Positions 6,457 through 64,000 of a DNA stretch of 64,000 nt are shown piece by piece; the stretch's first letter is position 1; each line of letters begins with the position of its first letter. The stretch is from NCBI GenBank assembly GCA_013815775.1, contig JACDFN010000003.1, forward strand, positions 14,354 to 78,353. Direction: 5' to 3'. The notes below the pieces were generated by a model. It saw nothing but the letters and a program-made list of their open reading frames with translations, did no database searches and was not told the DNA's origin. Made by a program: the position numbers and the translations under genes. Origin of the DNA: Candidatus Saccharimonadota bacterium (GTDB lineage: Bacteria; Patescibacteriota; Saccharimonadia; Saccharimonadales; UBA10212).

Positions 6457-9400
6457 AAAGACTTTAACTGGTTGGGGGATAAAAGGGTTCGGAGCCACAG
6501 TTCTGGGGTTGTTATTATTTGTTTTACTACACAATCCTGCTAGCGCCCAGCAAACAACAGGTGTCCCCATACCTAATAACTTTCTACCTAGGTCACAAGA
6601 TTTTTCCCAAGGAAACGGTGTTTATTTAATAACGGCCATTTACGGTACTGATTATGTTCTGCGTGCCCCTACGTCTACGGTTCGCTTTTATTCTCCAAAT
6701 TCGAGCAACACTATAAATATTGTGGACGGCGGCCATTGCATAGGTTCCGGGCCAGACAGGGGGCCAAACAACGCCGAAGCAGAAACTATCTATAGAGTTT
6801 GGCCACTGTCGCCCGATAATACACCAGCCAATTATAATAACACCCCATTCAATCCCAGAACGGGTCCTGCGCCTTTTGAGGTTTCCAGCAAAACCATCGG
6901 CTGTCAGGCTAGTTATCAATTTAACTTTAATAGTGGTGGTTTTAGTGAGGTAAATCTTGGTCCAGCCGAGGGAAAGTACGCCTTTGAGATAGAAGCCACT
7001 ATGACCGGACCTCAGGGCTGGAACATGTTCAAATACAACGTTGTGTCGGGCGGCGGAAGGTTTAGTTATTACGCCGGGTCGGGGGACAAGTTTGGCCTAA
7101 AAGATGATAGTCCCGGGCTACCGCCAAGCGGTGAACGTGGGAATTTTGCGCTGGGTTTTGCGCCTGGCTGCGCAGTAGCTAATAACGACGCCAGAAGTAT
7201 AACTCTAAAGTGGTTTGATGCTGATGCCGGAGAACCTAACCAAAGAGTTAATGCGTCTGATAATAAGGTAAGGACTCGGCTTGTTGAATACGATACTGCC
7301 GGCAATCCAACCGGCAGGAATATTCCTATTTCTGTAGCTCCATCAGTGGGTGATGCTCCAGGAGGCGGAATTTTAGACATTAAGACGGGCGATGACGTAT
7401 CGGGTCAAGCTCAGATTTCAATACTAGGATACCGCAAGTATAAGTGGGTTTGGGAAAATGTCCACAGCACAAACGGAGTTCAGTTCCAGCTGCCATACGA
7501 CAGTTACAATACTCTTATAGATTTTACAAAGGATTGTGCTACAGAAACTACAAACGCTTCATGTAAAGGCATTCCAACCAACTCAAAACAGGTTGCTATA
7601 GGAGGTGGTACAACCATAAAGATTAGGGCCACCAACACAGGCACCACTAACTGGAATACCCAATTTGCTCTTAGACAGGTTGATCCCGGTGGAGCTAATC
7701 TATTTATGCCCAACGTGGTGGCACCTGGGCAATTTAGAGAGTTTACCTTTAATATAAACGCCAGAACTACAGCCCAAACCGTTGTATTTAAATATAGTAT
7801 GTTTAATGCCAGCGGCATCAGGTTCCCGAGTCAGCCTGACCCGCTGTGTACCGTTACCGTTCAATGGACCAACAGCCCCAACAGCCGGTGGGGAATAATT
7901 GAAGCTAATTGTTCAACCCTGACCTATACCGGCAACCACTTCACTAAAGATGCCAGCGGCAATGTAGCAAATGGTCCGCCACGCAGCTTCACTACTTTTG
8001 CAGGCAGCGATAACGCCACCGAGTTTGGACCCGGCGAATACGTGAAGGTTGCAGTTACCCGCGCCGTTAATACTTCTGGAATGAGTGCCGGTGATGCCAA
8101 TGCCGCCCAACTTACAACCAATGACCCCGGCTATGTCCTATGGGTTAAAGTGCAAAATTCTGGTGATACAGTCAGCTTAATACCACTCGCAGCGGACGGT
8201 TCTTTACCAGATTTGTTTGGCCCGACGCCCGAAGGCTTACGCCCCCAGTATGGTTATACGTTTATCTTAAGTCTTTATAACACTAACGACCCCGGCGAGA
8301 ACAACAGCTCTGAAATTGCCACTACCACCCTGGAGCCCTGTTGGCGGCCGATTGAATGCAGCAGCTTGTCGTATACCGACTATGAACCGGGGCAGACATT
8401 GAATTCTACCTATTCATTCCTGTTTGGTTTAGCAGACAACGGTGATCCGGTAAAGACCAGCCAGTCAGTTGAACGGGACTTAATAAATGTAAGCGGTGAC
8501 CCCAGAGGCAATACCAAAGGCAATTACGCTATAGAAACCATTTTCCAGCCGGGAATCTCCGGAACCTTTATTAGCCCTAACCCAGTCGACTCTATAAGCG
8601 GTAACGGTGATTCTACGGTACAGGTGAAGATGAGCTTGACTGTAGAGTATACCGGCAAAGTTATAGTGCGCTTTAAGTACGGTAATAACCAAACGAATGC
8701 TACTTTGAAACAATGTGAGCAAGAAGTAACCCCACGTACGCGGCCTTACTTAAGAGTCAACCAAGGTGATGTACACACCGGTGGGGCATTTAGAAAACCA
8801 GACGGTAACTGCCCGACTGTAACCGAAGCAGGTTTTGTATCTCCGGCAACCGGTAATAAAAATTCCGGCGGGATTCGAACATTTGGTAACCCGGCCAGCA
8901 GGTTGGGCTCAAGAGTCGATTTTGCGGCCCTGGCATTGGGCTTAATTGACGGATCTTCAGGAGGACCGCCCCTTGGCTTTAGCAGCGCAGTACTTAATCC
9001 GTCTGTTAACTATGAGTATCTTGATTTTGCCAACACCACCTCAGATGAGCTGGGCGGACTACTAGGGGGAGATAATGGCTCAACAACCTTTAATATTGCT
9101 CACTGCATACCCAACTACTTTTACTCAACCCCAAAAATATTAGAGGCCAATAGAGTTTATGAGCCGGAAGATAAATTAATTCTGAACCCTGGCAAAAACG
9201 GCCAATATTATTACCAAACTGCTCCAGGCGTTCCGTACTTAAATCTGGGATCCAATGGTCCCAATTTGGTGGGCAATGGTGACCGGGTTACCTTTTACGT
9301 TAAAGGTGACGTCTATATAACAAAAAATATTGACTACCAAAATAACTGGACTATAACCACTACCTCAAACACCATTCCTTATTTTGCGCTGATAGTTGAG

Positions 9401-39788: not shown

Positions 39789-39963
39789 TGACTGAAAACC
39801 TGAATAATCTATGATACTTTTTATGCTTAAAATGCATTTTTTCTAGTCCCCCCGTCTTACTTAATAGAAGAAAAAAGTAGTAACCGAGACCCTTTCATAA
39901 AAGGCTATCGGTCTTATTTCTAGAGCGGTAATAAAGTAAGTTCGTAGATGGTGCTCCAATATT

Positions 39964-39998
39964 TAAAAACACCCGGCTGTTTTTGCCGGGTGTTTTTA
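39964..39998. terminator. Bidirectional intrinsic-terminator-like hairpin at the left end of the AT-rich tract
   Basis: AAAAA-ACACCCGGC-tgttttt-GCCGGGTGT-TTTTT. Confidence 0.6.
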
Positions 39999-41150
39999 TA
40001 AGTTTTGCTATTGGTTTGGGGGTTTGGAGTTTTTTATGTTTGGAAGGTTTTGGATGGAACAACGGCTTGCGAGAAGCCGTTGTTACAGATCAGTTTTTGT
40101 TTTGAGCACTTTTTTTATTCAAGCGCCACCCTCATCTTATAAAGTACCAATTAGGGTGTCAATACGATTATGAAAAAAAGCTGTGTATAACTCAAACATG
40201 AGTTGAGCAGCTTAGTCTATAAGCCAAGCTTAAATGCTCATATAACGTCATATAAACTGACCTTTATTGTTGTATTCAAGAACAAACAACTTTAATTTCG
40301 CAACTCAACTAGCATTTTTTATACCAACCTATGTTTGGATTTAAAATAAAATTCGAGCGAGCAGAATAAAGGCTTAATAGATTATTTAAGTTACTTGGTC
40401 TAACATTAACTAAAATGGCACTCAGAACTTAGCTAGCGTCATTTTTTAATGCCTCCATTGCTATTAAGATGATGTCTTGTCCGGTCTACAGGGCGTATGG
40501 ATTTTCATAATAACATCAGACTAGGCCTTATAAGGAGTTAAAGGTCTTAATAGATTTCAAATTAACTTCTTAATATAGGTGTTCAACAAAACTTAAAACA
40601 CCGAACAGGTACATTAACTTAGTCCTAATGGAAATTACGGCTTCGCTTATTAATTCATAAGCTCTAACCATCCTGGTAATTCGCGCATGCGGTTCTAGAC
40701 AGTAAATCCAAAAACATGTTATTTACTATTTTGAATAAAATTTTGTGCTTCATGTAAAGAAGGCGATATTAACTTAATATTTTTTTTGGTTTAACAAAAA
40801 TTTATTAATAACACGATCGCTATTGGCAACTAAGCCTAATGGTTTCTCAGTATCCTGTGTGGCTAAATAATGTGAAAGTTAGTTCGAAATTTAGAACTAA
40901 CGCAAACAATACATAGCGCATTATTTTTACTTTTAAAATGAAATTAAGACCTATTAAACTTTCCATAAAGCTGCAGCAGTAAGCTTCGAGCCGACCGAAA
41001 AAACACGGGTATTCCATAGAATAAAAGCGATCAAATAACGAACATAATATTTACAACTATGTGATATTTACTATGTTTTCAAAACAACATAAAATTTACA
41101 TTTGAGCTTTATTAAAACTGTAATGATGTAAAAATACTATCAATATATAC
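39999..41150. other. AT-rich tract (about 25-35 % G+C) with no ORFs
   Basis: No ORF of 60 aa or more in any frame between 39796 and 41345. Stops are dense in the one plus-strand frame I read through (40381-40620). Contains isolated hairpins at 40058-40084 and 40879-40902. Confidence 0.6.
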
Positions 41151-41179
41151 TTGACCTTTTAGCTATTGTTTGCTAGGAT
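41151..41179 (+). promoter_or_regulatory. Sigma70-like promoter for the 41.3-45.0 kb operon
   Basis: TTGACC (41151-41156), a 17-nt spacer, then TGcTAGGAT (-10 box at 41174-41179). Confidence 0.5.
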
Positions 41180-41185
41180 AATTTC

Positions 41186-41345
41186 AGTAAGTTAAAAAAT
41201 AAAAAGTTACTTACTAATAAGCGACCGGGAGGCGCTAGAATATCACTCTTCGGAAGAAGAGTGGTCAGTCAAGCCGTGGGACGGTAAGCGCTAAATAGTA
41301 ATATACAAAGGGCGCATTTACCGTCCAGGCTCCAAGCTCTACAAT
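41186..41345 (+). promoter_or_regulatory. Structured 5' leader (unknown cis-regulatory RNA candidate)
   Basis: Hairpin CACTCTTC-GGAA-GAAGAGTG (41244-41263; 8 bp with a GNRA loop). Hairpin GGACGGTAAGCGC...GCGCatTTACCGTCC (41279-41326; 13 bp). TGTGTG/CACACA arms bracket the ATG at 41352. Confidence 0.4.
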
Positions 41346-52503: not shown

Positions 52504-53974
<1,471 letters not shown>

Positions 53975-54227: not shown

Positions 54228-55544
54228 ATGGAAAAAAGACAAAAAAATGAACAATCACTGCTAACGGGCAATCGGCGCGTTGGTTTTACTGATCTAGCTG
54301 AAGCTTTCCAACAATATCCTGAAAAAATCCGGGAAATACTTCAGCTTAGCCACACTCTGGACTTCTACCCCTATCGCAGTGGACTTTTCCCGGCTTCAGC
54401 TTTGCCTGGTGAACTGGGTGAAATAACCAGCATGGGTATGGCCTGGCTGCGCGATAGTGCTCATATAGCTGACGGTTTATGGCAAAGTGGCGATACAGAA
54501 AGTGCTACGGCTGCCGGCCGCGCTATTCTGGATATATTCAAAGACCAAAACACCATACACAAGATGGAAGGCATTATCAATGGTAGTCTCGACCCGAAAG
54601 ACCCGAATTCTCGCCCTCCAGTACGGGTTGACGGCGATACGCTTATTTATACTGGCTATAATGATGCTAATATTCAAAATGACTCGGTTGGATATTCGAT
54701 TTGGCTAGCTAGCCGATTAATTAAGAACGGGGAAATAAATACATCTGCCGATGATATCAATACACTAGCTTTGATAACTCGTTACCTAGGAGCAATCCGC
54801 TACTGGGAAGATGCCGATAGCGGCCATTGGGAGGAAACCCGTAAAGTTAACGCTTCCAGTATAGGCGTGGTTGTAGCCGGCCTTAAATCGACGAAAGAAT
54901 TGTTTGTTAGCCTGGGCTATAACCATAATTCTTTGGAGCTAACAGACCTTATTAATAAGGGAGCAGAGACTTTAAATCAGATCCTACCTTATGAATCGCC
55001 TGGACCGGGAGAACTTGAGCGTCGTTATGATTCAGCCTTACTGTTTTTGGTTGAGCCAATGAATGTTGTTAGTCCCGAACAGGCAAGAATGATCGTTGAC
55101 GACATAACGCGGCATATGGTGAGAGACATCGGTATTGCCCGTTATCCCAAAGATTCTTATTGGCACCCCGACTTTCGAGATGAAGTAAAGCTTGGTGAAC
55201 GAGCGACTTTCATCCCAGGTGCATTTGAAAAACGGGAAACCTTAGCTCAGGAAAACAATGAAGCCCAGTGGACTCTTTTCGACCCGCTACTTTCTGTCTA
55301 TTGGGGAAAGCAGTTTAAAGAGACAGGCAATACGAGTGCTCGGGAAAGGCAAATGTGGCACCTTAATCGCTCATTAGGTCAGTTAGTCTGCGGCGGTCCG
55401 GACGGACAATCGTTGCTATTGCCAGAAGCATACTTTTTGGAGAGAGGCCAATGGGTAGCTAATGACCACGTGCCATTGCTGTGGAGTCAGGCTAATTTGA
55501 TGCTAGCGCTTGATATGTTTGAGAAGACCTCGAGACAAGCCTAG
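54228..55544 (+). CDS. Glycoside hydrolase family 15-like (glucoamylase-type alpha/alpha-barrel) protein
   Basis: AWLRDSAHIA, GHWEETRKVNASSIG, YDSALLFL, and LPEAYF...HVPLLWSQANLMLAL. Confidence 0.55.
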   Translation: MEKRQKNEQSLLTGNRRVGFTDLAEAFQQYPEKIREILQLSHTLDFYPYRSGLFPASALPGELGEITSMGMAWLRDSAHIADGLWQSGDTESATAAGRAILDIFKDQNTIHKMEGIINGSLDPKDPNSRPPVRVDGDTLIYTGYNDANIQNDSVGYSIWLASRLIKNGEINTSADDINTLALITRYLGAIRYWEDADSGHWEETRKVNASSIGVVVAGLKSTKELFVSLGYNHNSLELTDLINKGAETLNQILPYESPGPGELERRYDSALLFLVEPMNVVSPEQARMIVDDITRHMVRDIGIARYPKDSYWHPDFRDEVKLGERATFIPGAFEKRETLAQENNEAQWTLFDPLLSVYWGKQFKETGNTSARERQMWHLNRSLGQLVCGGPDGQSLLLPEAYFLERGQWVANDHVPLLWSQANLMLALDMFEKTSRQA

Positions 55545-55592: not shown

Positions 55593-55886
55593 ATGACAAA
55601 AATAAAAAAAACACCAGAAGAAGCAGAAGAAAAGTTAGCAATGCAACCCCCTGAAACGGAGTATGTTTCAGAGAGCTACGTAATTAACTTGCCTGCTACC
55701 AACGAGCATCTAGGAGACCCTTGGAGCCTGCGTAAATATGCATCTGAGGTGATGAACAGGGAAATTGGCGACGAGGTACAGCTAACATCTCTTAGAATTA
55801 AAAGACCTGGTTTAACCTCTCGTGGCACCGCTAAGCTTTTTAGTCGAACACCTAGGGTTAGGCTTTATGTTACGACAAAGTTCTAA
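55593..55886 (+). CDS. Hypothetical protein
   Basis: 97-aa ORF. No family recognised. Confidence 0.35.
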   Translation: MTKIKKTPEEAEEKLAMQPPETEYVSESYVINLPATNEHLGDPWSLRKYASEVMNREIGDEVQLTSLRIKRPGLTSRGTAKLFSRTPRVRLYVTTKF

Positions 55887-56569: not shown

Positions 56570-56610
56570 CCCCCGGGTCGCTCGCTTGCGAGCAACCCGG
56601 GGGTTTTGTT
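56570..56610. terminator. GC-rich terminator hairpin after tRNA-Ala, overlapping the stop of the antisense hydrolase gene
   Basis: CCCCCGGGT-cgctcgcttgcgagca-ACCCGGGGG-TTTTGTT. Confidence 0.7.
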
Positions 56611-57727
56611 ATCCGCAGTTTGCAATGGCGCCCGATTGGGCATCCACTACTGCCTGGCGGAAGGCGGGCAGTGACGACTTCGGAGTGGCGTCAGCATAGA
56701 AGGATCCGGACTGCCAAGCGGACAAGTCGCTCTCGTCACTGGTGTGAAAGAACGAGGTACCGATGACAGTCGGCTGGCAGGCGGCCAGCTCCAGAGCCTG
56801 GCGGTAGAACAACGCCTGAGTAGCTTCGCTAACCGCTTTAGTCGAGGGAGGCTCTGCGGAGTGGTACAAAGACCGCTTGTGAGGCGGAATAATGCTGTCC
56901 ACTCCGTATTCCATGTAGGCGATGGGTAACCTCGAGCCGGCTTGGGCTGTGCGGTTGAAAGCCTCCTCGAGAGCCGCTACCAGCTTCTTGTAGTCGGCGA
57001 AGCCGACATAGGCGCCCTCATGCAAAGCTTCCGGTGACTCGCTGGAGTTTACCCCGTAAGGATGGTACGAAAGAACGTCCATGAGGGGCTTTGTGCGTCC
57101 ACTTTCACGGAAGGCTTTGCCCATTTCCTTGATGTACTCAACCGAGCCACGTGAGGCAAGCCCGCCCCCGTAGACCCGGATGTCGGCCGAAATAGCCTTT
57201 AGCTCGTCATAAGCTTGGGCTAGCACCGTCACGTAGTTCTTGGCGGCGTCTTTTTGGGGCCGCCAGAACGACGGGGAATTGACTTCGTTTCCGATGACGA
57301 AGTCCTTAACTCCGTGAACTAACGTGAGTCCTGTTTTGTCTGTAGTACCTCCTTGCAGAGAGTGGGCCAGGGTGGACAGGAATGTCCGGTACTGGCGCCG
57401 CTGACCGGGTCCGATAGGCGCGCGACCGTACGGTGATACCGACAGAATCATGCGGATGCCGGATAGTTCTGCGGCTGCTACTGAGTTTCTGATGCTTTGA
57501 ACGTCCTGAGGGGACGGCCAAGGCTGGCCTGGTGACCAGGGAATGATCTGCCTGACGACTGTAAAGCCGGCCAGGGAAGTGAGCCTCATCTTCGCGTAAG
57601 CAACTTGAAGATCAGGTTGGAACGCTGAATTCGAAGCCACACCCACCCACTTGGGCGGTGCTGCCTCCGATGACTTTGTTCCCCCCGCTAGCAGCATAAG
57701 GAACGCTACGAGCAGGAATTTCGTCAT
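56609..57727 (-). CDS. Secreted TIM-barrel glycoside-hydrolase-like protein (clan GH-A-type motifs)
   Basis: Signal peptide MTKFLLVAFLMLLAGGTKSSEA/AP. GNEVN (acid/base NE) and AYMEYG (nucleophile Glu) motifs. SD GGAGAGAGG. G+C is about 60 %. Confidence 0.45.
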   Translation of the reverse strand: MTKFLLVAFLMLLAGGTKSSEAAPPKWVGVASNSAFQPDLQVAYAKMRLTSLAGFTVVRQIIPWSPGQPWPSPQDVQSIRNSVAAAELSGIRMILSVSPYGRAPIGPGQRRQYRTFLSTLAHSLQGGTTDKTGLTLVHGVKDFVIGNEVNSPSFWRPQKDAAKNYVTVLAQAYDELKAISADIRVYGGGLASRGSVEYIKEMGKAFRESGRTKPLMDVLSYHPYGVNSSESPEALHEGAYVGFADYKKLVAALEEAFNRTAQAGSRLPIAYMEYGVDSIIPPHKRSLYHSAEPPSTKAVSEATQALFYRQALELAACQPTVIGTSFFHTSDESDLSAWQSGSFYADATPKSSLPAFRQAVVDAQSGAIANCG

Positions 57728-57910: not shown

Positions 57911-58430
57911 ATTAAGGTTGTTTGAGTACGGCCAGTCGATGAACGCCGACATAGCGCGCGTTTTCTGGGCTTACTCAAACTCTTTAAGTACAATCTGTCG
58001 CGTTTAGTGGTGGATAAAGTAGGCCTGTATCTTAAAAACTAGGGTAGACGTGCATTAGTGAAGTGCACGTTTTAATTTAGCAAATGACAAACGGCAATTG
58101 GTGATTAACCAATAGCTAGTCAATTGCACTTGACACACCCTTCATCTTCGGATGAAAGGTGTAATCGTAAAAAGTTACTCAAGCGCGCATAAAGGATGCC
58201 TTGACGTAAGACACCGAGGAAGGACGTAGTCGGCTGCGATAAGCCGCGGGGAGCTGCCAAACAAGCTTTGAACCGTGGATGTCCGAATGGGGAAACCTCA
58301 CTAGAGTCATATCTAGTGGCTACCGTCTGAATATATAGGACGGATAAGCGGTAAGCTGGGGAACTGAAACATCTTAGTACCCAGAGGAAAGGAAAGTAAA
58401 CAACGAATCCCGTAGTAGTGGCGAGCGAAC

Positions 58431-58625
58431 CGGGACTAGCTCAAACCTTAACCATTTCCATCTATTTATTTAGGTGGATAAGTTGGTAGACGAAAATGTT
58501 TAAGGGGTTGTGACAAGTAATTAACCAGTACGGAGCCCTGAGAATTTCTCAGATTTCCGTACTGATAGCAGGCTCTACCAATGGTCTGCATAAGGTAAAA
58601 AATTTGCGATGCGAGCAGAAGCTTC
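58431..58625 (+). other. 23S domain I expansion segment (about 145 nt extra)
   Basis: About 194 nt lie between the conserved GCGAGCGAAC and CTGGAAAGG, against about 47 nt in E. coli as I recall it. Contains helix CAGTACGGA...TCCGTACTG enclosing CTGAGA/TCTCAG. Confidence 0.7.
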
Positions 58626-58792
58626 TGGAAAGGGGCGCCATAGACCGTGAAAGCCGGGTATGCCAAGTGTTGCAAACCTTATTATTATTAGGCTATAAGA
58701 CTTGTCTTATAGTGTGTCGAGTAGGACGGGGCACGTGAAATCCTGTCTGAAACTGGGGGGTCCACCCTCCAAAGCTAAATATGTCTTACGAT

Positions 58793-58823
<31 letters not shown>

Positions 58824-60036
58824 TAAAAGAACCCCGGATAGGGGAGTGAAATAGAGCCTGAAATTATGCGCGTACAAGGAGTCGGAGCTAGATTTAGTCT
58901 AGTGACGGCGTGCTTTTTGTAGAACGATCCAGCGAGTTATTTTGCAGCGCAAGCTTAAGCCATTTGGCGGAGGCGTAGTGAAAGCGAGCCTTAATAGGGC
59001 GACAAGTGTTGCAAAGTAGACCCGAAACCAGGTGACCTAACCATGGGCAGGCTGAAGCGTGGGTAAAACTACGTGGAGGGCCGAACCGTAGCGAGTTGCA
59101 AAACGCCCGGATGACTTGTGGTTAGAGGTGAAATGCCAATCGAACCTGGAGATAGCTGGTTCTCCTCGAAATAGCTTTAGGGCTAGCGTCGTGTGGTAGC
59201 TGTGTGGGGTAGAGCTCTGTTTTGGAATGGGGCCCGTAAGGGTATCCACCCTTGACAAACTACGAATACGCACAGTGGTATCACGGCAGTTAGAACGTGG
59301 GGGCTAAGCTCCACGCTCGAAAGGGAAACAGCCCAGATCGCCAGCTAAGGTCCCTAAATATACACTCAGTGGAAAACGAAGTGGGATTTCTTCGACAATG
59401 AGGATGTTGGCTTAGAAGCAGCCATTCATTTAAAGAGTGCGTAACAGCTCACTCATCAAGAGATCCTGCGCGGAAAATGTAACGGGGCTAAAGTGTATTA
59501 CCGAAGCTGCGAATGCTGCTATAAATTTATTTGTAGCAGCGTGGTAGAGGAGCGTTGATATTGCATTGAAGTCAGACCGGGAGGTCTGGTGGAGCGTTAT
59601 CAAGTGAGAATGCTGGAATGAGTAACCACAAGAAGGGTGAGAATCCCTTCCACCGAAAGAGCAAGGTTTCCTGGGCCATGATAATCATCCCAGGGTTAGT
59701 CGGTCCTAAGCCGAGGCGAGTAGCGTAGGCGATGGACAACGGGTTAATAATCCCGTACCGGTAATATATTGTTTCAAGATGCGCGGCATGGTAGCAGAAG
59801 CGGATTCATGGTTATATCCGTCTAACTGGTCTAACGGGCCAGGAATGAGACACCTGAATAAGGTGAATTTCTGTGAGAGTACTGACTAGAAAAGTCTTGA
59901 TACTTATGTATGTTGCCGACCGTACCGCAAACCGACACAGGTGCTCAGGTCGAGAAGACCAAGGTGTACGAGTGAATCTTCGTTAAGGAACTCGGCAATA
60001 CAGCGACCGTAACTTAGGGATAAGGTCTGCCTGGGT

Positions 60037-60174
60037 ATGCCACAATGTTCCAAAAACATGAGAAAAACCTAGGTTTTTCTCATCGCGCCGGCAAAATGGA
60101 ATACATTTTGTCGGGTTGCTCTCTTTCTGAGAAGAAGAGGAGCAAAAACCCAATTTTTGGGATGTTGTGGCATA
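60037..60174 (+). other. 23S expansion segment at the helix-63-equivalent position (about 100 nt extra)
   Basis: Closed by ATGCCACAA/TTGTGGCAT. Contains a perfect 26-nt palindrome at 60058-60083 and at least two more hairpins. No ORF. Confidence 0.7.
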
Positions 60175-60468
60175 TCTAGGCCGCAGCTAAAGAACCCATG
60201 CAACTGTTTACCAAAAACACAGGTCTCTGCTAACACGAAAGTGGATGTATAGGGGCTGACTCCTGCCCGGTGCTGGAAGGTTAAGGGGAAGGCTTTACGG
60301 CTTGAACTTAAGCCCCAGTGAACGGCGGCGGTAACTATAACCGTCCTAAGGTAGCGAAATTCCTTGTCAGGTAAGTTCTGACCCGCACGAATGGAGTAAT
60401 GATATGGGTACTGTCTCAACGAAGAGCTCGGTGAAAGTGCATTGACGGTAAAGATGCCGTCTGTCCGC

Positions 60469-60500
<32 letters not shown>

Positions 60501-60861
60501 ACAGTTTGGCATTGAATCGGGTTGTAACATGTGTAGGATAGGTGGGAGGCTTTGAAGCCAGAGCGCTAGCTCTGGTGGAGCCAACGGTGAAATACCACCC
60601 TTGTTACAATCTTATTCTTACATTAACCGTTATCCGGTTAGTGGACAGTGTCTGATGGGTAGTTTAACTGGGGCGGTTGCCTCCTAAAGAGTAGCGGAGG
60701 CGTTCAAAGGTTGGCTAGATACGGATGGAAATCGTATCGGTAGTGTATACGCATAAGCCAGCTTGACTGTGAGGCCTACAAGCCAAGCAGGCACGAAAGT
60801 GGGAGTAAGTGATCCGCTGTCCAAACCATTTTTGGTTTACGAATGTGGTATCGGCAGCGCA

Positions 60862-60894
<33 letters not shown>

Positions 60895-60926
60895 TATAGC
60901 GCCCAATAGTTCACATAGACGGCGCT

Positions 60927-60961
<35 letters not shown>

Positions 60962-60975
60962 AGGAGGAGCATCTT

Positions 60976-61046
<71 letters not shown>

Positions 61047-61622
61047 TTATATCCGCTGTGGACGTCAGGAAATTTGAGAGGATTTGTCGCTAGTACGAGA
61101 GGACCGCGATGAACGCACCGCTGGTGTACCGGTTGTTCTACCAAGAGCATCGCCGGGTAGCTATAGTGCGGACCAGATAAGCGCTGAAAGCATATTAAGC
61201 GCGAAACTGACCTCAAGATTAGATTTCCCCAGAGACCCCTGAAAGACTATCAGGTTGATAGGCGCAAGGTGTAAGTGCGGTAACGCATTCAGCCGAAGCG
61301 TACTAATAGGTCCATTGACTTTTTACGAGTCCTCACAGACGAGCCATGAGGCTTTACTTGCGAGAGTCTGTGAGGGCTGGTGCATTGACTAGCTATTGGT
61401 AGTCAGCAAATAGCTGATTACCGGTCATTTGTTAAATATCTAACTGTTATTTGGCATCAAAGGATGTTACATTTACATCGTACTCGTGCATTAATAATTC
61501 ATTGGCGTCGACTTCCGCTACTTTTCTTAACAAGGGAAAGGTAGTAGCCGCAGTCTGCTTTAGCAAATTCGGATTTATTCCGAAAGCGGCGTTGAAGGAA
61601 AACCGTAGGTTGTCCTTCAAGG

Positions 61623-61740
61623 TAGTCGGTGCCCATGGCGCTAGGGAAACACCTGTTCCCATCCCGAACACAGCAGTTAAGCCTAGCAGCGGTTACAATA
61701 CTTGGGTTTAACCCTGGGAAAATAGCACGGTGCCGAACTA
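61623..61740 (+). rRNA. rrf: 5S ribosomal RNA
   Basis: GTCGGTGCCCATGGCGCTAGGGAAACACCTGTTCCCATCCCGAACACAGCAGTTAAGC...GGTGCCGAACTA. Confidence 0.93.
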
Positions 61741-61747
61741 TAAGAGA

Positions 61748-61776
61748 GCCCCCGGAAACGGGGGTTTTCTTCTTTT
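61748..61776 (+). terminator. Intrinsic terminator of the 23S-5S unit
   Basis: GCCCCCG-gaaa-CGGGGG-TTTTCTTCTTTT. Confidence 0.8.
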
Positions 61777-61797
61777 CAAGAAGCAATACTAGCTATC

Positions 61798-61920
61798 CTG
61801 GGCGGCAGGGTAGCGCCCAGCGCCGGGCTGCGTTCAAACGGTATAGTCTTCGCTTGCCGGAAAGTTGGCCAAACCGAACTCCCTTCGGTCAAACATGCGT
61901 TTGGCCTTCATCTTTCCGGC
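61798..61920. other. GC-rich nested-hairpin element of unknown nature
   Basis: CTGGGCG/CGCCCAG (61798-61820). Nested pairs GCCGGAAAG/CTTTCCGGC, GGCCAAAC/GTTTGGCC and CCGAA/TTCGG (61856-61920). Confidence 0.3.
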
Positions 61921-61977
61921 CATGCTCATCCTTCTGTTTAAGCCGATCCCCGAAACCATAAACGGAATAATCTGACA

Positions 61978-62006
61978 TTGACGTAAGAGAATTAGTGTAG
62001 TATAAT
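61978..62006 (+). promoter_or_regulatory. Near-consensus sigma70 promoter of the acidic mini-gene array
   Basis: TTGACG, a 17-nt spacer, then TATAAT. SD AAGGA lies 6 nt before the ATG at 62038. Confidence 0.6.
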
Positions 62007-62037
62007 ATTAAATAATTAGGTTTATTAAGGAATTAAT

Positions 62038-62457
62038 ATGAGCGACAGATATCCAAATTTTGAGTCCCATCATTTGTCTGATCTGTATTTGGAAACTCAA
62101 ACCGATCGAGTTAAAAATCTGGTCAGCAATGCTGATACTATTATAATTCACACAACGCATGAAGCATACATAAAGGAGTTGGCACAGTCGTTCAACCTTC
62201 CTGAGGATGCAGCCGAGAGCTTGCGCAACGATTTCTTTAGACAGCGCGCCGAAATATTACGTAGATTAGATGCATCTGAAGAGCGTGTTGATTTTAGCGA
62301 ACCTTTACCTGTTGATCAACTTTCTGCCTTTAGCACTATGCTTCCAGAATATACTATCTCTGATGTAGCATTCCTGTCTGATGCTGATGCGGTTGCAGAG
62401 GTAAGGGAATGGATGGCGGCTGAACAGAGTGATATAGAAGGCGAGCAGGGAGTTTAA
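62038..62457 (+). CDS. Acidic hypothetical protein (139 aa), array gene 1
   Basis: ORF with SD. Net charge is strongly negative. Ends in ...EGEQGV. Confidence 0.5.
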   Translation: MSDRYPNFESHHLSDLYLETQTDRVKNLVSNADTIIIHTTHEAYIKELAQSFNLPEDAAESLRNDFFRQRAEILRRLDASEERVDFSEPLPVDQLSAFSTMLPEYTISDVAFLSDADAVAEVREWMAAEQSDIEGEQGV

Positions 62458-62460
62458 ATT

Positions 62461-62619
62461 ATGAGCGAGCATTTAGTAAATCCGCCTGCCGAAGGCACTA
62501 CAGATGAGGATTGGGGTTTTGAGCCAGCGGGTTGGGAAGACAGATTCATAGTCCGCTCAATGGAGAAGCTGCTAGACTTGCTAGGTAGATTAAAAGGCGA
62601 AGAAGCCGAAGGAGTTTAA
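62461..62619 (+). CDS. Acidic mini-protein (52 aa), array gene 2; below the track cutoff
   Basis: Hand translation gives MSEHLVNPPAEGTTDEDWGFEPAGWEDRFIVRSMEKLLDLLGRLKGEEAEGV. The SD GGAG is supplied by the GV codons of gene 1. Confidence 0.4.
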   Translation: MSEHLVNPPAEGTTDEDWGFEPAGWEDRFIVRSMEKLLDLLGRLKGEEAEGV

Positions 62620-62620
62620 T

Positions 62621-62926
62621 ATGAGCGAATTTTTTCCATCAGAGCCCGGTTCTGGTCTTATGCCGGAAAAGGATCAATTACCTAACGATTTAGTCACTGG
62701 TGTTCACAGTGAACATGATATAGCGGTGGAGCAAGCATTAAAGACTTCTTTTGAACGCATTACTACAGCCTATGAATCACCTCCCCCACATCTGCAGATA
62801 GGTATAAGGGATTTAGAGATGGAAGAAATCGAAAGATTTATACATGATCCACTCTATGAACTAATTCGCGAACGTATGCGTCAACAAGACACAGATTCAA
62901 AAGAAGTAGAAGACCAAGGAGTTTAA
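62621..62926 (+). CDS. Acidic hypothetical protein (101 aa), array gene 3
   Basis: Starts 1 nt after the gene 2 stop. Ends in ...VEDQGV. Confidence 0.5.
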   Translation: MSEFFPSEPGSGLMPEKDQLPNDLVTGVHSEHDIAVEQALKTSFERITTAYESPPPHLQIGIRDLEMEEIERFIHDPLYELIRERMRQQDTDSKEVEDQGV

Positions 62927-62927
62927 T

Positions 62928-63041
62928 ATGGCTGAACGTGAATACGCACACGAAAACCTCGTTGATTCAGCGATGATTGTAGTTAGCAGACGGTCAGCTT
63001 CAGCTGACACTTTCAATGAAGTACCACTTCGAGCTTCTTAA
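62928..63041 (+). CDS. Mini-ORF (37 aa), array gene 4
   Basis: MAEREYAHENLVDSAMIVVSRRSASADTFNEVPLRAS. It has the same GGAGTTTAATATG junction. Confidence 0.3.
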   Translation: MAEREYAHENLVDSAMIVVSRRSASADTFNEVPLRAS

Positions 63042-63048
63042 CCCTAGC

Positions 63049-63103
63049 TTCTGTTTTTCCGATGCCCGGGCCCATTTAAATCTGCTTCCTCGAGCCCGAG
63101 AAG
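63049..63103. repeat. Repeat copy R1 (paralogue of 63507-63561)
   Basis: ttctgtttttccgatgcccgggcccatttaaatctgcttcctcgagcccgagaag is about 80 % identical by eye to R2. Confidence 0.6.
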
Positions 63104-63145
63104 ATAGTTCCTGGCTTATAGCCTGAAGGATGTTCTTGATTCTGA

Positions 63146-63535
63146 CTAAGACGGTATTTGCATATCCGCATCAAGCGCTGATCTAAAAGCGTAAAACTGC
63201 TCTAGGAGAGGGTCCGCGCCCGTCTCACCAAAAAAGGCTTCTCGACGGTCTTGTAATTCCGCAAACAGCGCCACTCGGCGTTCGGACAACAGCATCCCCC
63301 TATCTATTTTTACTAGGAATTTAGCATTGCCAAGCTCTAGCTCTAAAGGGTCGGCTAATTTTTCTAGCTCAGATTTGACATCGTTTAACCACTGGTCAGC
63401 TTTTTCTTTCATGCCCGCTTCACGGGAAGGATCCATTTCAAACATCGCCAAATAATACAATAAATCTAGCAAAAATGCCAACGTTGTTTGTTCTAGGAGC
63501 CCGAATTTCTGTTTTTCAGATGCTCCCGGACCCAC
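63146..63535 (-). CDS. Hypothetical protein (129 aa), GTG start inside repeat R2
   Basis: ORF only. The N-terminus MGPGASEKQ is mirrored by a truncated MGPGIGKTE ORF in R1. Confidence 0.4.
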   Translation of the reverse strand: MGPGASEKQKFGLLEQTTLAFLLDLLYYLAMFEMDPSREAGMKEKADQWLNDVKSELEKLADPLELELGNAKFLVKIDRGMLLSERRVALFAELQDRREAFFGETGADPLLEQFYAFRSALDADMQIPS

Positions 63536-63561
63536 TTAAACCTGCTTTCTAGAGTTAGAAG
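63507..63561. repeat. Repeat copy R2
   Basis: ttctgtttttcagatgctcccggacccacttaaacctgctttctagagttagaag. Confidence 0.6.
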
Positions 63562-63618
63562 GGCCCTTTTATCTTTTTGAGCCGGAAGAGTATAATTTGC
63601 CAAAGAAGTAAACAACGT

Positions 63619-63816
63619 ATGTCAGAAATTATAAATCAGCCACCACAAGAAGTCTTAAGCGACTACAGTATGCCCTCTGCCGAGGAAATAACAGCGGTTG
63701 AGGCAATGTTGGAAGCCACTGAGTCAATAATTGTGAGCCCGGAACAACGTGCCAAAATGTGGAACGTAGTTATAGACCAAATTAGGGCTGAAAGAGCGAA
63801 GGGGGAAAGGGGATAG
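63619..63816 (+). CDS. Acidic hypothetical protein (65 aa from ATG 63619)
   Basis: The track ORF starts at TTG 63577, but a TATAAT at 63591-63596 lies inside that extension. The ATG at 63619 gives MSEIINQ..., the same MSE start as the array genes. Confidence 0.4.
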   Translation: MSEIINQPPQEVLSDYSMPSAEEITAVEAMLEATESIIVSPEQRAKMWNVVIDQIRAERAKGERG

Positions 63817-63841
63817 AGCCGACAGTTTGCTATAGTTTAGG

Positions 63842-64000
63842 CATGGACGAAGGATGGAAAGTTGAGCATATAGATAACGTCCCACCAATGAAAGACACCT
63901 TTCAAAAGGGCTGGAAATCTGTCCGTTGGCATATGGGCATTGAAGCTTTTGGTGTCAATGCTGCTACGAAAGACAAAGGCGAATGGTTAACTCCGGTTCA
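63842..64000 (+). CDS. 5' part of a cupin-like protein gene running off the right edge
   Basis: MDEGWKVEHIDNVPP...WKSVRWHMGIEAFGVNAATKDKGEWLTP resembles small cupin N-termini. Open to the window end. Confidence 0.35.

Follow-up and report, generated by a model that had tools for sequence, protein, structure and literature searches.

Translational coupling by termination and re-initiation, with the Shine-Dalgarno (SD) element of a gene placed in the cistron before it, is a familiar feature of many ribosomal-protein, ATP-synthase and phage operons. Small, acidic, strongly expressed and fast-evolving proteins are equally well known in the form of Ocr, ArdA and the anti-CRISPR proteins. A third relevant arrangement is found in SAR11/Pelagibacter, whose hypervariable region 2 (HVR2) has the 16S-23S cassette on one side and the 5S gene on the other (Grote et al. 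2012, PMC3448164; Wilhelm et al. 2007, PMC2217521). Here we describe a locus that can be compared with each of these: an array of four small open reading frames (ORFs), named A139, B52, C101 and D37, in a stretch of 64,000 nucleotides (nt; the window) from the contig JACDFN010000003.1 of a Candidatus Saccharimonadota bacterium (assembly GCA_013815775.1, positions 14,354 to 78,353). We think it reasonably likely that the array is a real, lineage-specific operon of orphan genes in a soil-type Saccharimonadales genome, with coupled expression, a position in an islet at an insertion hotspot and accessory products that bind macromolecules.

As in other coupled operons, the array has a single upstream promoter, SD elements inside the preceding coding sequences and stop-to-start distances of 1-3 nt, and tight junctions of the same style occur elsewhere in this genome, at gyrB-gyrA (4 nt) and at 10903-11605-12289 (0 nt). 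It is unlike ordinary coupled operons in that three successive junctions between unrelated genes reuse nearly the same module of 13-32 nt. The elements of the array are the following.

61978 to 62006, + strand: sigma-70-type promoter TTGACG-17-TATAAT, 11/12 consensus matches (TTGACG hexamer at 61978-61983, TATAAT hexamer at 62001-62006, spacer of 17 nt)
62027 to 62037, + strand: ribosome-binding region of A139, AAGGAATTAAT before the ATG, resembling the internal junctions AAGGAGTTTAAT
62038 to 62457, + strand: A139, 139 amino acids, H0X09_03600 (ORF map, charge calculation)
62449 to 62463, + strand: junction A/B, GGA-GTT-TAA-ATT-ATG, SD GGAG 8 nt before the ATG, A and B in the same frame
62461 to 62619, + strand: B52, 52 amino acids, H0X09_03605 = MBA3757914.1, a singleton cluster
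62592 to 62623, + strand: junction module B/C, AAAAGGCGAAGAAGCCGAAGGAGTTTAATATG, SD 6 nt before the ATG, frame shift of +1
62621 to 62926, + strand: C101, 101 amino acids, H0X09_03610 (ORF map, charge calculation)
62899 to 62930, + strand: junction module C/D, AAAAGAAGTAGAAGACCAAGGAGTTTAATATG, SD 6 nt before the ATG, frame shift of +1
62928 to 63041, + strand: D37, ORF of 37 codons, no NCBI accession, codon log-odds 0.20

The four ORFs (139, 52, 101 and 37 codons, with stop-to-start gaps of 3, 1 and 1 nt on one strand) cover 99.5% of the 1,004 nt array span. Coverage in 5,000 shuffles averaged 25% and never exceeded 74%, and 0.12% of the shuffled spans contained an ORF of 139 codons or more. 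By applying a codon log-odds model built from 15 long housekeeping ORFs in the window, we found that the in-frame values of the four members were 0.20-0.25 per codon versus 0.19 for the training genes, and that the other five frames of the array were clearly negative. Spurious ORFs (126 of at least 37 codons, taken from wrong frames of long genes or from rRNA) had values of -0.01 +/- 0.09, and only 1 of the 126 reached the level of the array. Guanine plus cytosine (GC) content peaks at codon position 1 in all four ORFs. The NCBI annotation of this metagenome-assembled genome (MAG; 'Candidatus Saccharibacteria bacterium') covers A139, B52 and C101, and D37 is present only in the gene calls of the protein collection itself. 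From these statistics A139, B52 and C101 are confidently predicted to be protein-coding, and D37, the weakest member, probably is as well. The opposite explanation, that the ORFs arose by chance or are pieces of one decayed larger gene, has in its favor that homologues are absent for all four and that D37 is very short and has no NCBI accession. Every piece has its own ATG and SD, however, none of them matches a family as fragments of a broken gene would be expected to, and the tiling and codon statistics contradict chance; on the last two grounds spurious ORFs and pseudogene fragments were rejected, and we consider this explanation highly improbable. The GC content of the array (0.42 versus about 0.44 for the host) and its codon usage are host-like, and the array therefore did not arrive recently from a donor of different composition.

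The promoter is the sole sigma-70 site with at least 11/12 matches on either strand of the 64-kilobase (kb) window, where ~1.5 would be expected by chance, and it is its position that makes it credible, not the site count: it lies 32 nt before the first ATG, which has an AAGGA ribosome-binding site. The pattern AGGAG-N5-9-ATG occurs 11 times in the window and two of these occurrences are in the array, strong AGGAG sites being uncommon in this genome. A139, B52 and C101 each terminate in GGA-GTT-TAA, giving junctions of the form GGAGTTTAA-N1/3-ATG in which the codons GGA-GTT of the upstream cistron supply the GGAG of the next one. The string GGAGTTTAA has 4 copies in the window (0.94 expected), of which 3 are at the ends of A139, B52 and C101. 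The C-termini therefore read EQGV, AEGV and DQGV, and the N-termini of the four proteins read MSD, MSE, MSE and MAE, with MSE also starting the ORF at 63619 (F65). The original prediction, which had been made from the letters of this stretch, held in all of these points, namely a near-consensus promoter before ORFs of 139, 52, 101 and 37 codons placed 1-3 nt apart, (E/Q)GV ends whose GGA-GTT codons provide the next SD, and MS(D/E) starts in three of the four proteins and in the 63619 ORF; the coordinates were reproduced as well.

The similarity of the junctions goes beyond the SD and the stop codon. Junctions B/C and C/D form a 32-nt repeat of 84% identity, and in the 19 nt 5' of the GGAG they are identical at 14/19 positions, a level reached in 0 of 20,979 in-frame null comparisons between ORF bodies. 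The leader of A139, AAGGAATTAAT-ATGAGCGA, is a near copy of the internal initiation module. By RNA folding, the junction RNAs and the leader (z = +0.69 for the leader) were no more structured than shuffles; since the initiation sites appear unstructured and open, both re-initiation and independent loading of ribosomes are plausible. Within 1.09 Mb of related sequence this is the only chain of abutting small ORFs with four members, all of them acidic, and chains of at least three are rare. With gaps of a few nt, and with each SD located within the preceding coding sequence at 5-9 nt from the start, the junction anatomy reads as that of a translationally coupled polycistron. The MS(D/E) starts and GV ends would most simply be by-products of a repeated initiation module, AAGGAGTTTAAT-ATG-AGC-GA, as opposed to protein motifs, and the simplest reading of the repetition is that a good initiation module has been propagated or kept by selection.

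The candidate that the junction is a recurrent mobile module was tried and rejected: RRGGAGTTTAATATGAGCGA was found at 23 loci in Joint Genome Institute (JGI) metagenomes and the 18-mer at 4 in IMG/VR. The matches to the junction pattern in both collections are single occurrences on unrelated contigs of varied GC content, and most are ordinary ribosome-binding sites with no upstream cistron.

Two other explanations of the junctions were considered. In the first, the tails of A139, B52 and C101 (acidic, of the form K-G/E-E-x-x-E/Q-G-V) would be export signals of secreted or transferred effectors, for instance for type IV machinery directed toward actinobacterial hosts. The three tails are indeed alike, those of B52 and C101 share DNA 5' of the SD beyond any null comparison, and some type IV substrates have Glu-rich C-termini. 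The conserved stretch, however, also carries the SD, the stop and the start, such that selection on translation explains the tail; no secretion genes are adjacent, signal peptides are absent and D37 has no tail, making this explanation very unlikely. In the second, the array would encode a recoded polyprotein made by read-through at A/B and by a +1 frameshift at GUU-UAA-U at B/C and C/D, with GGAG as the stimulator. A139 and B52 do share a frame, a +1 slip after GUU would enter the AAU-AUG frame of the next cistron at B/C and C/D, and an SD-like element lies directly 5' of the stop as at the prfB frameshift site. Against this, the AUG of every downstream ORF stands at an ideal distance from an SD and coupling explains the arrangement fully, re-pairing of tRNA-Val from GUU to UUU gives a first-position mismatch, the SD spacing differs from that of prfB, and protein searches found no homologous fused protein; we give recoding almost no weight.

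Translational coupling would operate as follows. One strong sigma-70-type promoter would give a transcript with a leader of ~25 nt, from which the four cistrons would be translated in tight coupling, the GGA-GUU of each upstream cistron serving as the SD GGAG of the next. At the UAA, with an AUG following 1 or 3 nt later, a terminating ribosome could restart, and free ribosomes could load as well. A139, B52, C101 and perhaps D37 would probably be expressed at high and roughly proportional levels.

The genomic position of the array was compared among relatives by anchoring on the S1 gene 8 kb downstream, which gave 75 related loci, nearly all from Saccharimonadales MAGs. The left border of the site and the part of the variable segment inside the window are as follows.

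61625 to 61738, + strand: 5S rRNA gene (Rfam RF00001, 89.6 bits), the conserved left anchor of the variable site
61749 to 61776, + strand: terminator of the rRNA operon, a CCCCCG-GAAA-CGGGGG hairpin followed by TTTTCTTCTTTT (sequence reading; the stem was also found in the terminator scan)
61780 to 64000: in-window part of the ~7.9 kb species-specific islet (spacer alignment, tblastn/blastn synteny and ORF maps of relatives)

The rRNA operon is complete in the window (16S at 52504-53973, tRNA-Ile, tRNA-Ala, 23S at 58168-61327, then 5S). In the locus of this genome (L001), position ~8030 corresponds to window-equivalent ~69,685. The closest S1 proteins are 81-86% identical, and a block consisting of g65 (a small basic protein), an M78-like gene, a ROK kinase and S1 is kept in 36-47 of the 75 loci. 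The genes from A139 to g104 show no synteny, and the relatives of the glyoxalase, g68, DUF1801 and DUF1295 genes are scattered, occurring at the equivalent site in single genomes. A 5S gene lies upstream of S1 on the same strand in 13 loci, at a spacing of 1.9-6.1 kb versus 9.9 kb here; these 5S copies are 80-95% identical in 12 loci and the 13th keeps the last 22 nt at a contig end. Between 5S and g65 there are 190-220 nt in five loci (L034, L035, L036, L040 and L042) and 456 nt in another (L043), and in six others (L029, L033, L039, L031, L020 and L051) the interval is filled with 1.7-4.3 kb of genes unrelated to one another.

Alignment of the empty sites revealed a conserved 5S terminator, a spacer of ~40 nt and a conserved g65 promoter and leader, which define both borders; an equivalent of the terminator hairpin is at the same position in relatives, and the g65 promoter and leader of this genome are at L001 ~8030-8183 (window-equivalent ~69,685-69,837). 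Because the empty-site alignment and the synteny place the 5S terminator and the g65 promoter at the borders, the segment from ~61,780 to ~69,685 is a species-specific insertion of ~7.9 kb in a hotspot, with the A139-D37 operon as its predicted first transcription unit. A variable accessory region after the rRNA locus had been suspected in the original prediction, and the comparison with related genomes demonstrates it directly, as the site is empty or carries unrelated cargo in relatives. We found no integrase or transposase domains in the islet, and no border repeats, the only repeat being an internal one of 48 nt around the gene E129.

This islet resembles SAR11 HVR2 in being a flexible island at a conserved rRNA-adjacent position of a small streamlined genome, with conserved flanks and differing cargo. 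It differs in belonging to another phylum, in lying after the 5S gene and not between 23S and 5S, in its size (0-8 kb versus about 50 genes) and in a cargo that is here rich in small acidic orphans. Our search of the literature found no paper on rRNA-adjacent islets of this kind in Saccharibacteria, and none on the sample accession.

In relatives the hotspot cargo includes an OLD-family nuclease, surface proteins of the LysM and WxL-interacting types, a YdeI/OmdA-domain protein and a YbaK-type editing domain. The nuclease is an OLD-family ATPase-nuclease at the 5S-adjacent hotspot of L039 (1550-3253, - strand; MAG contig JAJDCK010000015.1; PADLOC Old E = 4.9e-69; Pfam AAA_15), and a 176-amino-acid protein with no family lies directly upstream of it on the same strand. 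In three loci (L033, L039 and L051) the first gene after 5S encodes a unique acidic protein starting with MSE and is preceded by a perfect TTGACA hexamer and a leader rich in A, and no convincing alignment of these proteins or their promoters with the array was obtained. C101 and the first-gene protein of L039 (L039_756) gave a pairwise E = 0.003 and a shuffle z of 7.8, an unconfirmed link, and phmmer against 16,660 ORFs of relatives found nothing. A far-reaching picture would make the 5S-adjacent hotspot of this Saccharimonadales clade an 'expression dock', where species-specific, fast-evolving or newborn acidic proteins are placed behind strong promoters. In this genome a junction module of ~30 nt, made up of an acidic tail ending in GV, a stop, an SD and an MSE start, would be portable and would chain unrelated ORFs into a stoichiometric and highly expressed operon, whose products would take part in conflicts with phages or the actinobacterial host, perhaps by inhibiting defence or host proteins; we regard this as a long shot.

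Several observations on the rest of the site may be recorded here. The remainder of the islet (L001 2594-7969, window-equivalent 64,248-69,623) encodes further small acidic proteins, g98, g101 (- strand), g113/121 and g104, which are five in number when E129 is counted; they have no family match and no relative among the 75 loci, and are interleaved with cupin, glyoxalase-like, acyl-ACP desaturase, DUF1801 and DUF1295 genes. The promoter of g65 (MAGTKAGG...) is conserved as TTGAC(A/T)-17-TAT(C/T)AT in six loci (L001, L034, L035, L036, L040 and L042), and the conserved leader contains a hairpin resembling a terminator, GAGGGTTCCG...CGGGACTCTTTTT, a possible attenuator or regulatory RNA. A weak resemblance of 71% to this leader is seen at 63551-63584 of the window, upstream of F65. 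Between the 5S terminator and the array promoter, a GC-rich stretch at 61790-61935 folds with -54.6 kcal/mol (z = -2.57, matched by 1/200 shuffles); it has no Rfam match, is not conserved among relatives, and is overlapped by a minus-strand ORF of 41 codons (61834-61959).

The products of the array are small and mostly strongly acidic. The calculated net charges are -18, -8, -14 and -2 and the isoelectric points (pI) 4.3, 4.3, 4.4 and 5.0 for A139, B52, C101 and D37, and Asp plus Glu make up 21-25% of A139, B52 and C101. Among 79 predicted proteins in 72 kb, where the median pI is 8.0, B52, C101 and A139 rank 1st to 3rd in charge per residue and the ten most acidic proteins are all in the islet. 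The description of the mini-genes as highly acidic in the original prediction accordingly applies to the first three and fails for D37, which is mildly acidic, and the net charge of roughly -20 put forward there for the first protein comes to -18. Because A139, B52 and C101 have no signal peptide and no hydrophobic segment, their location would be cytoplasmic. In AlphaFold2 models from single sequences, A139 (mean predicted local distance difference test score, pLDDT, 64; predicted template modelling score, pTM, 0.54) has a disordered N-terminus and a helical domain at residues 40-136 with a pLDDT of 70-85, and C101 (pTM 0.26) has two or three helices (31-52 and 67-99) and no compact fold.

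Searches for relatives of these proteins were uniformly negative. A139 matched only itself in 5.8 billion clusters (word-indexed search) and in 1.84 billion representatives (full HMMER scan), as did C101 and E129 in the word-indexed search of the 5.8 billion clusters, and the clusters (90% identity) of B52, D37, F65 and five further small islet proteins hold sequences of this genome alone. For the array proteins, no match below E = 0.001 was found in Pfam, NCBIfam, PHROGs or PADLOC, a sequence search of the PDB gave no match, the best Foldseek hits against PDB and BFVD had E of about 0.9-1.1, and 50,697 phage genomes (tblastn) and IMG/VR viral contigs had no match. Nor are the members paralogues of each other by BLASTP, with Smith-Waterman z < 3.2 among A139 to F65 and the other islet orphans. 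The WXG100/Esx family is likewise not indicated, with no Pfam match, no Trp in C101, and WG and GW present in B52 in place of W-x-G. In the 1.09 Mb of related sequence, small acidic helical proteins form just one further tight chain, a pair of overlapping tandem DUF5663 paralogues of 106 amino acids (L007 8136-8773, + strand, a Saccharimonadales MAG; net charges -15 and -10); those copies are paralogues of a recognised Pfam family and occur elsewhere in their genome, whereas A139 to D37 match neither DUF5663 nor each other. The four proteins belong to no known family, and none had been recognised in the original prediction; orphans of this kind are common in candidate-phyla genomes.

The acidity and size of the products raise the possibility of anti-defence or anti-restriction proteins, made at high level and in fixed ratios, that would mimic DNA or block restriction, CRISPR or other defence proteins of the host or a competitor. 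A139, B52 and C101 have the composition for this, with a pI of about 4.3; small proteins without homologues behind a strong promoter and ribosome-binding sites are typical of fast-evolving counter-defence genes; and the hotspot holds a defence nuclease in L039, such that the site would trade in conflict-related genes. The array may be likened to Ocr (T7 gp0.3), ArdA and anti-CRISPR operons in encoding small, acidic, fast-evolving proteins with strong expression signals and no enzymatic motifs. It is unlike them in sequence and fold, in its chromosomal position and host-like codons, and in its charge density, which is below that of classic DNA mimics. Specifically, we found no Pfam or PHROGs match at E <= 1 to the Ocr or ArdA families and no match to any anti-CRISPR or phage family; the genes are carried in a chromosomal islet with no mobile-element genes, as opposed to the early or leading region of a phage, plasmid or integrative and conjugative element; no integrase or regulator lies nearby, with no helix-turn-helix (HTH) or other domain in D37, E129 or F65 and thus no Aca-type regulator of an acr-aca operon; and most other cargo of the hotspot is not defence-related. 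A toxin-antitoxin or polymorphic-toxin immunity array is not indicated either, with 5S upstream and downstream genes free of toxin domains. The analogies to DNA mimics, anti-defence proteins, immunity proteins and phage early genes drawn in the original prediction found no counterpart in the domain libraries, PDB, Foldseek comparisons with PDB and viral models, phage genomes or viral contigs, nor in any adjacent mobile-element, toxin or regulator gene, and we consider an anti-defence role unlikely, at a modest minority chance.

The lack of relatives could also result from youth. The ORFs may be proto-genes that arose or diverged recently in an islet of fast turnover and that are expressed because good signals precede them, while having hardly any selected function or none. 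Among about 15 billion proteins each of them is a complete singleton, large parts of them are predicted to be disordered, their codon usage is host-like, and the first post-5S genes of L033, L039 and L051 are likewise unique and acidic, with 'MSE...' starts behind TTGACA-type promoters. Maintenance is indicated, however, by a run of four ORFs whose frames show no decay and whose initiation modules are optimised and nearly identical, the codon log-odds equal those of housekeeping genes, and a packed helical domain is predicted for A139. We hold this explanation to be improbable on balance, while giving it a real share of the weight.

The segment directly after the array contains a repeat and two further acidic orphans.

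63049 to 63095: direct repeat copy 1, ~48 nt, directly after the array
63146 to 63535, - strand: E129, acidic orphan of 129 amino acids, H0X09_03615, convergent with the array and between the two repeat copies
63507 to 63555: direct repeat copy 2, overlapping the E129 start codon and first 9-10 codons on the minus strand
63619 to 63816, + strand: F65, acidic orphan of 65 amino acids starting MSE, H0X09_03620, next gene of the islet, preceded by an upstream region of its own

The two copies of the repeat are ~83% identical with a 2-nt indel and bracket E129; they are the only copies in the window, relatives have none, and folding indicates that the repeat RNA is not structured. On the minus strand, copy 2 holds the E129 start (N-terminus MGPGAS...), and copy 1 holds an equivalent start (MGPGIG...) that runs for 20 codons only, antisense into D37. 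Because its stop abuts copy 1, D37 is possibly truncated, and an earlier duplication or recombination event may have cut short this last cistron of the array together with a copy of E129. The same features bear on a further explanation, that the array is the remnant of a mobile element or a prophage 'early gene' block of which the rest has been lost. Small, tightly packed genes with a strong promoter and ribosome-binding sites resemble phage host-takeover modules, and the repeat around E129, at one copy of which D37 ends exactly, suggests past recombination. Neither the phage genomes and IMG/VR contigs nor PHROGs or BFVD gave a match, however, no integrase, structural or replication genes lie within 10 kb, and the composition is that of the host; the remnant explanation is accordingly quite improbable.

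The above analyses favor a coupled, lineage-specific operon of orphan genes. Since relatives lack the entire unit, an accessory, non-housekeeping role is likely. Judged by their charge, size, coupling and position in the islet, the products probably act by binding other macromolecules, and candidate roles are those of a small complex or of inhibitors in a setting of conflict or host interaction. Several points weigh against this interpretation. The coding and expression claims are predictions from sequence, and the functional part is drawn from composition and context; the structural models are single-sequence based and of moderate confidence, with the low pTM of C101; D37 is short, barely acidic and has no NCBI accession; and a terminator scan found no rho-independent terminator after it. 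The array is seen in one genome only, with no second strain or homologue for gauging purifying selection, and this genome is metagenome-assembled, such that the two contigs carrying the array may derive from the same reads.

Saccharibacteria and other ultra-small episymbionts encode many unexplained small proteins that are suspected to be involved in their parasitic lifestyle. The locus provides a clean and experimentally tractable case, with four orphan genes that have unusually good expression signals, and the conserved insertion hotspot between 5S and the small-protein gene g65, with differing cargo that includes a defence nuclease, is newly identified here. If the products are functional, they would represent new protein families and the hotspot would be a place to seek lineage-specific interaction or conflict genes in the phylum; if they are not, the array would consist of ordinary orphan genes in a flexible islet.

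Elsewhere in the window, a 1.55 kb stretch of low GC content (0.33 versus about 0.44) at 39790-41345, with no convincing ORF and no Rfam match, is flanked by a minus-strand gene of 489 amino acids and a small membrane-protein ORF. The rRNA operon extends over 9.2 kb owing to protein-sized ORFs in its spacers: the spacer from 16S to tRNA-Ile contains 54228-55544 (+ strand, 438 amino acids, weak Glyco_hydro_15 match) and 55593-55886 (+ strand, 97 amino acids), and that from tRNA-Ala to 23S contains 56609-57727 (- strand, 372 amino acids, no Pfam match). The 23S match (58168-61327) has 3,160 nt versus a model of 2,925 nt, which implies an insertion of about 235 nt. In five relatives (L029, L034, L035, L042 and L043) the 3' 500 nt of 23S are split into two or three pieces with gaps of 0.3-0.9 kb, which look like intervening sequences or introns.

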